Source of the DNA: Neophaeotheca triangularis
Taxonomy: Eukaryota
Length of the DNA stretch: 42,321 nt
Assembly: GCA_054600435.1 (NCBI GenBank)
Contig: BAAIJX010000048.1
Coordinates: 124,001 to 166,321 of the forward strand
Direction: 5' to 3'
This document shows, in pieces, positions 18,954 through 24,423 of this stretch. The notes under the pieces are model-generated. The model was not told the origin of the DNA and made no database searches. It saw only the letters and a list, made by a program, of their open reading frames with translations. The translations under genes were made by a program, and so were the position numbers. Within the stretch, counting starts at the first letter, position 1. The number at the start of each line of letters is the position of its first letter.

Positions 18954-20343
18954 TCAAGCTGTGTCGCCAGGTCTCGCAGCGCGCCCGGTTGCAGTTGCTG
19001 AACTCGGTTGGTCGGTGTTCCAGCTCAGGTAAGTGTGGTCGCCCAGTTTCCTGCATTGTTCGAATCAGCCACCTGCGCTTTGTACGTTACTTGGAGCTGC
19101 CAAGGACTTACCTTGGTTTGATCAAGTGAGTGGCGGTGAAGATGGCCCCGAGGATAATGCAAACGCCTCCGACTACGACGTAGGCAATGCCCATGTAGGG
19201 ATTCCGTCCACCCATGACAGTCCGTGTCGAAAGTAAAATGGACTTTGTGCCGTCATAGATGGTGACCGGAAAATCTTGACAGTGGCGTTAGTGCTAACCT
19301 GGATGGTGGGACTTGCTCCAAAGAGGTAGTCAATACTCACTGTCGTAGATGTCTATTTGGTATCTGCCACGCTCCATTGTGTCGTCGTCGTTACGAAGAG
19401 CCAGCTTGCTAAAAGTCGGCAGACCAGCAGTCCTCATCCACACCTGGAAAGGCTCGTCTTCCTTCAGATTGGGAAAAGGAAAAGATTCGTTGTACTCTGG
19501 ATATCGCTTTTGCCAGAAAGGTGGCGGTACCACATCACCGTATTCATATTCCGTCACCCCGTAAAGATCGCTATCACTTTCCCACGCGACAGTCCGGTTC
19601 GTCATCTCGTAAGTTGTGTTCTGCTCGCTCGACCCAGCCTGGTTTAGCGCCGTGATTCGGTTGTACGTGTCGTTAAACATCGAGTTCGCAATGAGGCCGC
19701 AAGGGTAATAGGCCTTTCCGTCGTCATTCACATCTAGCGGCTCGCAATCGCTCGACTCGATGGAGCTGTTATCCCGTGCATTGCCTTCAAGCTGCTGCTG
19801 ATCAAAGGAAGACACATATCGCCGATGATTTTGGTAGAAGTTGGTCAATTGGTAGTAGAGCAGGACAGGCGGTGTCATGTCATCCGGAATATAGAATTGT
19901 ATCCTGCACACCTCGGTTTCGACGCTGTAATCAATGTTCACACCATAGCTCACGGATACGTTTTCCTTGCACCAAGTTGCCGCCTCGGAATCCTCAATGC
20001 TATTGCTGAAGTAGGTCGATACCAGTGAGTTGGGTATGCGCGAATCGTCGGGCGGTACTCCGTCAGTGCAGTCTGGCGCTTCTTGTTGGCATTCCGAATA
20101 ATCGATGTTCAACTCTTTGACTTGGGAGCTCGCCCAAAGCAGGAGTCCACCAATCGGGGCGAAGATGATGCCGACGGCGAAAAAGAGGGGGAGGACGGTT
20201 TTCGGGGTGAGGATGGGTTGCCAGGCCTTCAGGCGCTGCTGACGGAAGGCCGTATTGGCCGGTCGCCGGCTCTTCTGCTTCTTCTTGTCCTCATCCTCGT
20301 GCATGCTAGAGCCCTCGCCTTGCTGTTCCATGGTTTGCGACAT
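18954..20343 (-). CDS. CDC50: CDC50/LEM3 family P4-ATPase (phospholipid flippase) beta subunit, 3 coding exons
   Basis: Introns at 19340-19275 and 19111-19051. Motifs RRPANTAFRQQRLKAWQPILTP, YYQLTNFYQNHRRYV, YYPCGLIANSMFND, VWMRTAGLPTFSKL, MGGRNPYMGIAY and KPRKLGDHTYLSWN. There is a probable 5'UTR intron from about 20444/20439 to 20349. Confidence 0.94.
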
Positions 20344-20845
20344 GGCGACTGGTGTTTTCCGGGATGTGGGTTGGCAGTGTCAGCGCATGTTGCTGATTGT
20401 AGTGGTGGATGTGGATGAGGTGTCGTCGTAGAGGCCTACCTTACTGATCAGCCGCTGCGTCAGCACGGAATCTCGGGATTAAGATGCATGCGCTGCGGTT
20501 CCATTGCTTCAAGGGTCCGAATCTGAGGCAACGCCAAGTCACGTGTTTCACCAGCGTCTCTAAATGCAAAACGAGCCTCATCCGCTGAAGAAAAGAATGT
20601 ACAGCTTTCTAGATAATTATGGAAGATAGAAACAAGCCTCACAAAGATGCTGAAAGAAAACACGCACAGCTTTCTCAACAGAAGATGAAAACAAATAGAT
20701 GGTCCGTCGTCAAGAACGACAGTTGCAGGCTCGCTACAGCTCAAACCAACGCCATAGCTCTATACTCACTACCGGTACAACTCCCAGAAAAAACGAAAGC
20801 TAGCACGCTCAATCGCTTCCAAAAATCTCTCAAAACCCGCACCCC

Positions 20846-23224
20846 TCATCTCGTCCCCTGATCATCACCATCATCATCCTCCTCATCATTGACCCTTCTA
20901 TATCTGCCACTCCCGCTACCCCCATCACCCTTATTCCGATTCACCATATTCGAGATCCACCCGCTGACGCCTTCCTTCTGGCTGTCCCGATCCGACTGGC
21001 TGCGCGAATCCCTACTACCCAGCATGGCCTTGCCGTTCTGAATGTCTACGTGCGGGGGCTCGATGTCTAGATCGGGCACGTTGGAATCTTGGTTAGTGCC
21101 GTCGCCGCCCAAGCGGAAAGAGGGAACGGGCGAACGGTCGCCGCTGAAGAGCGACTCGGCTTCTGCGAGAGTTGCTGGAGTGGCGGCGGTAGTGGTGGCG
21201 TCGCCGAAGAGCGAGTTCATGTCTTCGAGGCGCACGTTTGCCGTTTCGGGGTAGATGAACCAGACTGGGAGATTGGTTAGTGCTGTGCTATGCTGTTGGG
21301 CGTTAGCGGGCTCTTCCTTACCGACTACAAAGCTGACGGCGCAAAAGAAGGCGTGCACGAGATACAAACGCCACTGGATGGCGTCTTGCAGAATCGGTGT
21401 CATCTCGCCGACTAGCCAGTTGAATGCCCAGTTTGATGCTGTGGAAAGACTCGCTCCCTTGGCTCTTATACTCAACGGCAATATTTCTGGTGGATACAGC
21501 CTGAAGACCTGTTAGCTGACGAACTATCTTCCGACCCGTGATCTGAAACCTACCATGGAATAGGTCCCCACGACGCCCCAAACGCGGCGTTGTAGATCAT
21601 GACGAAGGCGACCACCAATTGGGGGGTCCAGTCTATGTTGAGGAAGATAAAGTAAGAAATAGCCGAGAGCGAGATGATCATGGCCACAGCGCCGGAAAGT
21701 AGGATCAAGCGGCGGCCCAGCCTATCAACAAGGTACCATGGAGGGATTGTGGAAAGCAGGTAGGTGATGCCGTTGATACCAGTCATGAGGATGGCTCTCC
21801 TGCCATGCCAACCAGCTTGCTCGAAAACCAGGGGAGCGTAGTATGAGATCACGTTAATGCCGTTCAGCTGTGCTAGAGACTGCGCGGACATGGCGATGAA
21901 GACACGCTTCGAGTAGCGTTTGAACATGTCTCTGTATGTCCTTTCGCCCTCTTGGCGTTGAAGTAGAACGTTCATCTTGATCTCGCGGTATTCGTCCCGG
22001 GCTTTTTGGTTGTGGATGTCTCCTTTGCCGTATAGATTTGCAATGACTACGATGCCTTCTTCGTCATGATCGTTGTCAAGCAGCCATCTGTAAGAAACTA
22101 TCAGCAAGTGTCTAAGACTTTCCTCTGTATGATTACGCTCACCTTGGAGACTCTACAATCAAGAAGCTGCCTCCAGCCAACAGTCCGCCCATGACAACCT
22201 GCATAAGCAAAGGCAGGCGCCACGCCCAGTCATTATCCATGTAGCTGCAGAAGTAATCCACCCAAACACTACACATGTAACCGAAGATGTTGCCAGAAAA
22301 CTCAATGCAAGCCAGCTTTCCTCGATTATGCGGTGGGGAGATTTCGGACTGGTAAACGGGGACGATTGTTGAGAGAGCACCAACTCCGAGACCTGCAACA
22401 ATTCTTCCCAGGAGCATCATGGGCATGCCCGTCGCAAAGGTCTGGCAAGCACCACCGATAACGAAAACTACCGCTCCGTAGAAGATGGTCTTTCTCCGCC
22501 CAATAATGTCTCCGACTCGACCCACGGTAAGCGAGGCTACAAAGGCTCCAATCTCCAAAACGGCAACCATGGTCCCTATCTCGGCGCTTGTGGGTTGATT
22601 GAAGTAGTCCTTGAAATGCGGGCCAGTGATGATACCAGACATGACACCCTGATCATAGCCAAAGAGAAAGACGCCAACAGACACAAATATTGATAGGAAA
22701 TAGATCAGTTTTTTGCCGTGCAGCCCATGCATCCTCGAAGGTCCGTCGGTCGGAGCCATGATTCTTGCGAGCACGATTTGGCCCAAGTTGAGCTTGGGTG
22801 GAGGTGGGCTGGGTATACGGATGTCCTCTTTCTTCTTAGCAACTCCAGCCTGCTGGCGATATCCCTTCTCCTCGCCGTCTTGGCTATCGGCGTACCTCAC
22901 ACGCTTGCCCTGCTGGCTGCGACTTCTGCCTCTTCTCTTTGGGCCGCTGCCTGGATAAACTTCCTCACCGCTACGTCGCAGCCGTATAGCAAGCGGGTCT
23001 TCGGCGTCGGCGAGTTGGTCAACGAGGTCGCCAGTGTCGCTCCAAAGCGAGAATTCGGAGCCGGCGTCGTCGTCGTTGTCGTCGTCCTCGGAGCGCCTGA
23101 GGCGAGCTCTGTCGCCCTTTTCGTCGTATGGGGAGCTACTACGTCTTTGGCCAGAGGAGAGGGTATGGAGGGGGATGTTGGCGGGCTTGCGTGTGTTTTG
23201 ACTTCCTCCTTTGTTGAACGGAAT
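20846..23224 (-). CDS. MFS monosaccharide transporter (sugar porter), 4 exons. First AUG at 22759; probable longer form from about 23224
   Basis: Introns at 22142-22088, 21553-21501 and 21321-21265. Motifs LFGYDQGVMSG, GDIIGRR, PVYQSEISPPHNRG, ESPRWL, AQLNGINVISYYAP, VDRLGRR, SWGPIPWLYPPEI and YPET. The frame stays open upstream of ATG 22759 to the TAG at 23245-23243, so the start coordinate is uncertain (see findings). Confidence 0.9.
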
Positions 23225-24423
23225 TTTGGCGGCGGCGAGGGTCTATCCCTCTAAGAAGTAGAAAGGGTCTAGGGTCAAGGGGAGGATGGGGGGGGTGGGT
23301 GGTAGGGTAGATCAGATGTGGGAGGGTAAAGGCGGTGATGTCGAACTAGCGCAGCGATGAGGTCCAGGCGGGCTGGGCTGGTGATTATTGCCGGGGTTAT
23401 GACACTGGAACTGGTTGGTGCTGGTGGGCCGGACGGATAAGATAGTAGTTAGTGCTGTCTGTCTAGGGGCTTTCACTCGAGTTGGCACGCAATGGGGATG
23501 CACGTGTAGAAGTGACTAAAGCCGGTACTGTGGACCATTGAAGTGCAAGTGACTTTGGGGCTGCAGAGGTCGAGTCTCGAAGTTGCAGGCCTATGTCGAA
23601 GCAGCTTGCATGAGCCTGAAGGTAACTATTCGTTATGTTATGATAGGGCACAGAGGGAGAGAGAATCAGACAAAAAGAACAGAACCTGGAAGAAATGGAA
23701 GATGATCTGCGCCGGTTCAAGGAAGACGTGTAGAGCTACGTAAGGTATATACATGCCAAGACCTAACCGACGACGTCTCTGCGAAGCCGACTTCGAGTAC
23801 GGTAGCTTTTATCTAGGTAGACCACGAGTGTGCCCTGAGCACGTGTCAAACTCTCTTCCAGACTCGGAACTTCAGACTTCATCTGCCAACATCACGTCCA
23901 CAATAGTCCACCTCGTCACTAGCAGCTGCTGCTTTATGTCTGAAGAGGAACCATCACGTTGACTATAACGACAGCAGCACTAGACCTCTCGAGGCGTCTT
24001 CAGTCTTTCAAGAAAAAAATAATTAAAAACCGCCCGCCAAGTCACCGGACTCGTGTAGCGTGAGCTAACTAACGTCCACGTGAGCACCTCTAGCTGCGCC
24101 CAAAATGTTTTGCCGCAGCCGAAAGGCATAGTAGAGGTAGGTCTTCTTTCGTCAGGTGCTTCCTGAGCTCGTTTCGTACTTTATAACATCACGTAATGCG
24201 ACGTTCGCGATATTGGCCGGCCGCCTGTCCCGTGCATACCTAGGTAGGCTTCATTCACAAAGATGGCAGTCCAAGTCATTCACCGAGGAAATATCCGCGT
24301 CCCCGGACCAGGGAGAATCGTGGAAGGGTGTTGACAAAACGATGGCCTCTTATACTCCTCTAGCAAGATATCTCACAGCCCTCACCGAGACAGACCAGCA
24401 CCCAGCAGACTCAGCTCCAACAC

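Follow-up and report, generated by a model that had tools for sequence, protein, structure and literature searches.

We analysed a stretch of 42,321 nucleotides (nt) from Neophaeotheca triangularis (contig BAAIJX010000048.1 of assembly GCA_054600435.1; hereafter the window, in whose positions all coordinates are given), which carries a sugar-porter gene on its minus strand at about 20.8-23.3 kb. A preliminary description, made from the letters alone, had proposed that this gene begins not only at its first AUG but also at an AUU codon 155 codons upstream. Counted from that ATT, exon 1 (22143..23224) encodes the extension together with the first half of the sugar-porter domain, and is followed on the same strand by intron 1 (22088..22142; 55 nt, GTGAGC...TTACAG), exon 2 (21554..22087), intron 2 (21501..21553; 53 nt, GTAGGT...CTTCAG), exon 3 (21322..21500), intron 3 (21265..21321; 57 nt, GTAAGG...TCCCAG), which occupies the position of an intron spliced out of the orthologous contig L007, and exon 4 (20846..21264), with the terminal stop TGA at 20848-20846. 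Joined across these three GT..AG introns, the frame has no internal stops and encodes 737 amino acids from the ATT or 582 from the ATG.

The gene product is a membrane transporter of the sugar-porter family (major facilitator superfamily). The open reading frame of exon 1, open from just after a TAG (23242..22139, minus strand), matches PF00083 over residues 184-367 (E = 8.5e-44; 150.6 bits against a cut-off of 22.3), while the Pfam search gave no match for residues 1-183 of the same frame. From end to end, the predicted window protein is 78% identical to protein P0001, 76% to P0003 and 74% to the transcript-derived reading frame of L007. All homologues found carry PF00083, and the AlphaFold2 model of the L007 orthologue shows long helices in series over residues 173-605. 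The source names given to homologues disagree ('high affinity glucose transporter', 'STL1', 'hexose transporter' and 'Ribulose bisphosphate carboxylase large chain'); the last, which many orthologues bear, is plainly a propagated mis-annotation.

Upstream, the porter frame is closed by an in-frame TAG (23243..23245), seven codons 5' of the proposed AUU start codon (23222..23224). This ATT is embedded in GCCGCCGCCAAA-ATT-CCG, with the context C(-4) A(-3) A A ATT C C, and none of the six codons that separate it from the TAG (ACC CTC GCC GCC GCC AAA) is a near-cognate start codon. It lies 465 nt (155 codons) ahead of the ATG at 22757..22759, which is the first AUG of the transcript region, is in frame, has the context aatcATGg, stands about 23 residues ahead of the first membrane helix and is the proposed start of a short form. 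Reading along the minus strand, the only ATGs hereabouts are at 23538 and then 22759, and the zone between them (22760..23535) is free of ATG in all frames; the gap of 779 nt is the longest ATG-free interval of the window on either strand, the runners-up measuring 576 nt (plus strand) and 527 nt (minus strand). The preliminary description had placed the open frame, the ATT and the ATG-free zone exactly so. Its estimate that roughly a dozen ATGs would be expected there holds against the window average (15.9 per kb, hence 12.4 per 776 nt) but not against local composition, by which 7.4 (base composition) or 4.6 (dinucleotides) would be expected. An ATG-free outcome was obtained in 2 of 5000 mononucleotide shuffles of the 776-nt stretch.

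The 155-codon N-terminal extension (22760..23224) has relatives throughout a large part of the Pezizomycotina. With residues 1-175 of the exon-1 frame as query, 111 proteins (644-1146 amino acids) match at E<=1e-3, all with PF00083; the top match is a protein of Zasmidium cellare (64% identity), and the named matches are nearly all from Dothideomycetes. A 161-residue extension used alone matched 101 cluster representatives, 45 of them at E<=1e-10, and the N-terminus of a Chaetomium orthologue retrieved 166 more matches at E<=1e-6 from Sordariomycetes (Neurospora, Fusarium, Colletotrichum, Trichoderma, Xylaria), Leotiomycetes and a lichen fungus (Lecanoromycetes). The segment FSLWSDTGD...EDPL, which the preliminary description had tentatively connected with long-form fungal transporters, is real, being part of an extension that the 111 long porters and 101 representatives match. 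Conserved motifs of the extension are IP..RKPANIPLHTLSS, DFSLWSDTGDLVDQLADEEDPL, KRVRY and RKEDIxIPxPxP, and the window copy, whose closest locus is L005 at 68% protein identity, keeps all of them. Amino-acid conservation starts at Ile-Pro: a (K/T/N)-I-P motif is near-invariant about 8-12 residues ahead of PANIPL(H/R)TL, and among proteins with enough upstream sequence, 82 of 90 and 99 of 102 have an Ile-x motif 5-18 residues ahead of PANIPL. Over 155 well-occupied columns from 58 loci, diversity at codon positions 1, 2 and 3 is 0.364, 0.314 and 0.625, respectively, a pattern that indicates purifying selection on the protein and by which the extension is judged to be translated and constrained. 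The earlier impression that it reads like protein is thus borne out by both its homologues and its substitution pattern.

The extension is predicted to be a disordered cytosolic tail. In the AlphaFold2 model of the L007 reading frame, residues 1-144 have a predicted local distance difference test score (pLDDT) below 50, with short helices at the acidic DTGDLVDQL motif, just past EDPL and just ahead of the Met. Disorder interspersed with short helices suggests that the tail may act through short binding motifs, for trafficking or turnover, rather than as a folded domain, and we favour a regulatory or sorting role, such as control of trafficking or turnover. No recognised targeting signal was found in the extension; its proline-rich IPxPxPR(K/R) stretch resembles an SH3-binding site. 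In the window, positions 23049-23096 (minus strand) form an acidic (GAC/GAT)n stretch that encodes DDDNDDD.

Comparison at the DNA level used metagenome contigs scanned with the extension alignment, which yielded 92 stretches, 81 of which encode a relative; the best 80 were kept, and counts refer to these loci, to a set of 81 sequences or to subsets of complete or unique loci (70 unique loci, or 71 unique sequences including the window). The codon of the start Ile is ATT in 78 of the 80 loci. The two exceptions, L052 (2483-2488) and L070 (2431-2436), are related loci in which ATC-GTG replaces ATT (ctcATCGTGgct); this GTG is itself a near-cognate start codon with A at -3. Among the 71 unique sequences, ATT is present in 69, A at -3 in 69 and C at -4 in 67. 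The next residue is Pro in 65 of the 71, with a free third base (CCT 39, CCG 15, CCC 8, CCA 3). As a control, the invariant Ile of PAN-I-PL is encoded by ATC in 54, ATA in 10 and ATT in 7, and the other Ile codons of the extension are ATC (204), ATA (95) and ATT (71). Third-base diversity at the start Ile is 0.03, compared with a mean of 0.547 over 31 near-invariant residues, which points to a constraint on the nucleotides themselves, as expected of a start codon and not of an ordinary Ile. Conservation at this level is limited to the ATT and its -3/-4 context. At one locus, L068 (2420-2484), a 60-nt in-frame insertion directly after the conserved ATT-CC ends in a second ATTCC; the leader element and the context (gtcacaATTcc) go with the first copy.

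Downstream of the ATT, ATGs are nearly absent until a conserved in-frame AUG is reached. No ATG occurs in any frame between the two in 55 of 60 complete unique loci (0 in 465 nt in the window), and the 60 extensions together contain 5 ATGs, against expectations of 151 from codon shuffles (all out of frame) and 178 from dinucleotide content. Per kb, the extension has 0.19 ATGs and the frame just past the AUG 29.2. An in-frame ATG follows 381-498 nt 3' of the ATT in all 60 loci; its Met lies inside the conserved peptide (I/V)-M-A-P-x-D-G-P-S-R, and its context, scored in 59 loci, has a purine at -3 in 51 and G at +4 in 38. The loss of out-of-frame ATGs within a coding region indicates selection against them and hence that many ribosomes scan through the extension, in which case the AUU would be leaky and the conserved AUG the second start. 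The preliminary description had proposed to look in orthologues for a conserved near-cognate codon at this site and for AUG depletion beyond it; both are present, with ATT in a near-invariant context, and its suggestion of two isoforms made by leaky scanning is supported.

From the nearest in-frame stop upstream down to the ATT, the porter frame is free of ATG in all 81 sequences. Such a stop was seen in 80, L028 having only 144 nt of upstream sequence, and lies 4-183 codons 5' of the ATT (median 28). In 7 of 70 unique loci it is at most 10 codons away, examples being TAA-ACC-TTC-ACC-ATT (L061) and TAA-GCC-GCC-GCC-AAA-ATT (L020). Transcript sequence from one orthologue agrees with an unspliced leader. 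Contig L007 (2950 nt) shares 99% identity with genomic L011 but is missing a 62-nt GTGAGT...CTAAC...TAG intron, and therefore represents a spliced transcript; it is colinear with the genome across all 490 nt 5' of the ATT, with no 5' intron. Its leader contains only two short upstream open reading frames (uORFs), of 3 and 16 codons, and, 23 codons before the ATT, a stop in frame, so that in this orthologue the check on 5' splicing that the preliminary description had called for finds neither a leader intron nor a usable AUG. L061 is likewise spliced relative to L053, and the frames from the ATT run uninterrupted for 714 codons in L016 and 704 in L029. Two metatranscriptome contigs match the window itself: one of 265 nt aligns to 22979-23243 with a single mismatch and includes the ATT, and another of 155 nt aligns over 147 nt at 22797-22943. 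In the parts that they cover, these pieces reveal no splice joints or informative ends. Depth at the (GAC)n stretch (23049-23096) is inflated, reaching 263 in one bin, by matches of about 30 nt from contigs of unrelated organisms.

The leader also contains a conserved hairpin at a nearly fixed distance from the ATT. In most loci it has the form GGGCUG-(7-8 nt loop)-CAGCCC, with variants that preserve pairing (GGACUG/CAGUCC, GAGCUG/CAGCUC, GAGGCAG/CUGCCUC, GGGCUA/UAGCCC and GGGUUC/GAACCC), and the distance between its 3' end and the ATT is 11-16 nt, most often 12 or 14 nt (23 of 64 rows each). When 68 rows were aligned with a fitted model, 86.4% of cells paired and two-sided changes occurred at 6 of 6 pairs; that alignment is biased towards structure, and an unfitted one gives 82-86% for the same two half-helices. 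The observed pairing was reached by 0 of 500 shuffles, and sliding the partner by 1-3 columns left 5-57% of cells paired. Of 67 unique loci, 50 have an uninterrupted stem of 5 base pairs or more whose end falls at -20 to -10 (6 or more in 41), compared with 17.8% of shuffles and 11 of 63 in the region 100 nt upstream. Against the hairpin count the 17 of 67 loci without a clean stem and a mean single-sequence fold z-score of only -1.26. RNAalifold gave no consensus pairs on either the fitted alignment (A3) or a fresh alignment of -44 to -9 (61 unique loci), so the support comes from counts of the named structure, single-sequence folds and the stem count against its controls. The Rfam search of 22700-24000 returned no family at E<=1. 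A second helix, GGAG/CTCC, which would form a pseudoknot, was dropped as unproven, with 66% of cells paired on the unfitted alignment.

Relative to the ATT, the conserved leader element occurs in all three phases (30, 25 and 9 of 64 rows), which shows that it does not code in the porter frame and accounts for its appearance in database translations as AAPxQP, GLLPNSP or GCSISA. The window has a small hairpin, GAGGG-AUAGA-CCCUC (23237..23251, minus strand), whose 3' end is 12 nt 5' of the ATT and whose loop holds the TAG; its predicted stability (-7.9 kcal/mol) is that of shuffled sequence (z = 0.06), and it represents a degenerate version of the hairpin that relatives conserve. Further upstream, a candidate uORF starts at ATG 23538 (23473..23538, minus strand; 21 codons, MVHSTGF..., plus stop; -314 to -248 from the ATT). 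The mini-uORFs of relatives lie at -124 to -166 with similar sequence about the ATG (ttttcATGgtNcac); among the 26 loci listed, ATG-TGA is found in 10, ATG-TAG in L042, MVHLLI in 4 and MAAD or MAAG in 4. Start-stop uORFs, mostly caATGtgacc, are listed for L010, L012, L013, L014, L018 and L022 and further for L025, L029, L030, L042, L048 and L055. The window uORF opens with MVH, as do those of some relatives, but is 21 codons long and begins 314 nt 5' of the ATT; it is probably a copy of the short uORF conserved there.

On the basis of the AUU with its context, the upstream stops, the protein-level selection, the absence of AUGs and the downstream AUG, we infer that the gene makes two proteins from one mRNA by leaky scanning, an AUU-started form of 737 amino acids and an AUG-started form of 582, a reading to which we assign a probability of roughly 70%. 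That the extension is translated from the AUU at 23224-23222 we hold with somewhat greater confidence. Scanning ribosomes would meet this AUU first, in a strong C-A-N-N context, and a minority would initiate there with initiator Met-tRNA, giving the long form with its 155-residue, mostly disordered cytosolic N-terminal tail. The majority would pass it and, since all frames lack AUG over the next 465 nt, arrive at the conserved AUG (22759), which is in frame, and there initiate the short form, which would have an ordinary short N-terminus.

The hairpin and the short uORF probably tune the choice between the two starts. With the AUU in the P site, the hairpin would presumably sit where the mRNA leaves the small subunit. 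It might lengthen the dwell of the complex on the AUU, as suggested by reports that scanning complexes move back and forth and that hairpins which impede scanning improve recognition of weak starts (PMC8593136). The uORF, in turn, may render start choice sensitive to reinitiation competence. A more elaborate scheme, in which uORF, hairpin and a Met-Pro long form act across the Pezizomycotina as a three-part leader switch that sets the ratio of the forms, strikes us as rather improbable. The minimal uORF, often AUG-stop, would turn ribosomes into re-scanning subunits, and the hairpin at the mRNA exit would keep the complex at the weak AUU, mirroring from upstream the classical effect of a downstream hairpin. 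With Pro as residue 2, the AUU-started form would begin Met-Pro and expose an N-terminal Pro after Met removal; this resembles the signal read by the glucose-responsive GID/Gid4 pathway of yeast. As a candidate degradation signal it could confer sugar-dependent turnover on the long form only.

Several observations weigh against AUU initiation and the two-form model built on it. AUU is usually a weak start codon, and the base at +4 is C in 65 of the 71 sequences. Other in-frame near-cognate codons with a purine at -3 lie between stop and ATT in 42 of 70 unique loci, so the ATT is not always the first candidate, although those others are not conserved. For every member of the family, the basis for use of the AUU is comparative. 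A search for RNA sequencing data from the organism of the window gave two metatranscriptome runs only, with query-word shares of 0.09 and 0.05, and neither RNA sequencing nor ribosome profiling of the organism itself; the two short metatranscriptome contigs could in principle be DNA carry-over. One end of the 265-nt contig coincides with 23243, which is the G of the TAG and lies in the loop of the hairpin; at a depth of 3.4 this may be coincidence, or it may mark where the transcript ends or where the assembly graph branches, as it could at a splice acceptor. Finally, the loci are interrelated (at 80% extension identity the 58 complete loci fall into 31 groups, at 70% into 17), so that the counts overstate the number of independent observations, and because the search pattern demanded PANIPL, Sordariomycetes fall outside the DNA-level comparison and are represented by protein N-termini only.

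One alternative is that the gene yields the long form alone, with the AUU (or the whole leader) as its one functional start and the downstream Met merely a conserved residue. The position of that Met within (I/V)-M-A-P-x-D-G-P-S-R means that protein-level constraint could retain it, and the short form is a predicted product. Selection on protein does not explain the loss of out-of-frame ATGs, however, as the codon shuffles that set the expectation keep amino-acid content, and the downstream AUG has the context of a start; a weak AUU as sole start would also give very low output. We regard this alternative as unlikely. Still less probable is that the extension is translated from some other non-AUG codon, by reinitiation after the uORF at a codon other than AUU, or through upstream frameshifting. 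The additional near-cognates at 42 of 70 loci and the ATC-GTG at two loci could be read in its favour, but the window has no near-cognate between TAG and ATT, amino-acid conservation sets in at Ile-Pro, the ATT with its -3/-4 context is the only conservation at the nucleotide level and the upstream frames are not conserved.

We consider it very improbable that splicing supplies an ordinary AUG from an exon further 5', as it would if ATG 23538 were connected with an acceptor at the TAG (23245-23243). Many orthologues are indeed annotated with an N-terminus that starts at an AUG further 5', in some cases by way of predicted introns; a pyrimidine-rich tract and then an AG come shortly upstream (ctttctacttcttAG), and the end of the metatranscriptome contig falls exactly at 23243. 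Those annotated N-termini are mutually dissimilar, though, and the 490-nt leader of the spliced contig L007 is unspliced; several lineages have in-frame stops 4-7 codons ahead of the ATT with no conserved AG there, and the three phases of the leader element speak against coding in the porter frame. In the window, the sole in-phase donor after ATG 23538 is GTCCAC, poor beside the GTGAGC, GTAGGT and GTAAGG of the gene itself; the resulting intron would measure 293 nt against the gene's own 53-57 nt, and a better acceptor (cttcttAG) would keep the TAG within the exon. Least probable of all, in our judgement, is that in this organism the extension is an untranslated relic or an ordinary 5' leader and only the AUG form is made. 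This would fit the degenerate hairpin, no more stable than shuffled sequence; it is at odds with an intact 155-codon frame, 68% identical to L005 and complete in its conserved motifs, with the intact ATT and context of the window and with protein-level selection across the family.

The two-form model has close parallels. In cpc-1 of Neurospora crassa and its Pezizomycotina homologues, AUU and other near-cognates start conserved N-terminal extensions (Ivanov et al. 2017, PMC5487733), so that the precedent invoked in the preliminary description is sound and comes from the same fungal subphylum. As far as the passages of that paper drawn on here go, cpc-1 and the porter have in common a conserved AUG-free in-frame extension and conserved near-cognates, an AUU among them, that have A at -3; both leaders contain uORFs, and each mRNA gives, or in the porter would give, two forms that differ in length. 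They differ in that cpc-1 uses several near-cognates, with AUU kept in only 64 of 100 species, whereas the porter has a single ATT, in 78 of 80 loci; the same passages name G as an important base at +4, where the porter has C, and describe codon use tested in extracts and in vivo, while the porter is known from sequence alone. The fixed-spacing upstream hairpin of the porter leader does not appear in the cpc-1 passages compared. cpc-1 is, moreover, a basic leucine zipper factor and the porter a membrane transporter. We rate the porter as a further case of a near-cognate-started extension with cpc-1 as its nearest precedent, and the hairpin as a possible new variant.

Other known cases are more distant. 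Fungal 6-phosphogluconate dehydrogenase acquires peroxisomal forms through a non-AUG start (PMC7214817) and has a functional extension encoded in the '5' UTR' (untranslated region), a non-AUG codon and two fates; its extension is a peroxisomal targeting signal of type 2 (PTS2), whereas that of the porter consists of 155 disordered residues with no recognised signal. Human PTEN has an AUU-started long form found through phylogenetic signs of coding in the leader (PMC4892431) and is similar in that a leader AUU starts a conserved N-terminal extension, but it belongs to another kingdom, is an unrelated protein and is not known to have a conserved 430-nt AUG-free stretch ending at a conserved AUG. 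Hairpin-assisted starts resemble the porter leader in that a compact, stable hairpin sits at closely fixed spacing from a weak start codon; there the structure is downstream, whereas the porter hairpin is upstream, with its 3' end 11-16 nt before the AUU. Kozak reportedly found in 1990 that structure about 14 nt downstream stalls the scanning complex and aids weak starts. Hairpin-assisted recognition of weak start codons has also been described as 'START' (PMC11165317). For the porter hairpin, a role as a backstop against backward sliding would be our own proposal rather than an established mechanism.

The preliminary description had also raised the idea of a transceptor. Snf3 and Rgt2 are transporter-like glucose sensors of yeast with a long cytosolic tail that is C-terminal and AUG-started. 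Sensors of this type are defined by a conserved repeat motif in that signalling tail and by sensing in place of transport. Like them, the porter combines the sugar-porter fold with a long disordered cytosolic tail containing conserved short motifs, but its tail is N-terminal and would be optional; it lacks a C-terminal tail of the Snf3/Rgt2 type, and we found no evidence for the transceptor idea. A literature search on non-AUG or AUU starts combined with fungal or sugar transporters gave no report of this family, although supplements of papers might list more. Conserved non-AUG starts are rare, with a handful known in fungi, and the porter is an unusually clear example (ATT in 78 of 80 loci and about 430 nt free of AUG). 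Its family extends across the Pezizomycotina, including model fungi (Neurospora) and plant pathogens (relatives of Zymoseptoria, Fusarium, Colletotrichum, Venturia), and provides a testable system for how a leader hairpin and uORF may select and tune a weak start and how an optional 155-residue tail may affect a nutrient transporter.

Automated annotation misses the long form, as the preliminary description anticipated. Across orthologues, the annotated N-termini 5' of the Ile are mutually dissimilar and ad hoc, and some database models are fusions with neighbouring genes that bring in additional PF03641, PF00443 or PF08610 domains, probably because the gene predictor sought an ATG upstream. 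Several models from Hortaea, Venturia and Elasticomyces fuse the porter to the upstream gene. The 5' ends of hundreds of gene models are probably wrong in one of three ways: invented N-termini, fusion to the upstream gene or truncation to the AUG form. Some database orthologues have Met right at the position of the Ile (MPPNLSRR-, MPSNST-, MPSHR-, MPFS-), which is only a hint of interchange between ATT and ATG, some such cases being gene-model artefacts (MPIRP... in Colletotrichum). P0170 also has Met at this position, its best named relative, at 53-54%, being Venturia-like, and two Sporormiaceae proteins, P0052 and P0099, have Val there. Beyond the porter, the next open frame downstream in the window (19330-20379, minus strand; 349 amino acids from stop to stop) has the look of a flippase subunit of the CDC50/LEM3 type.

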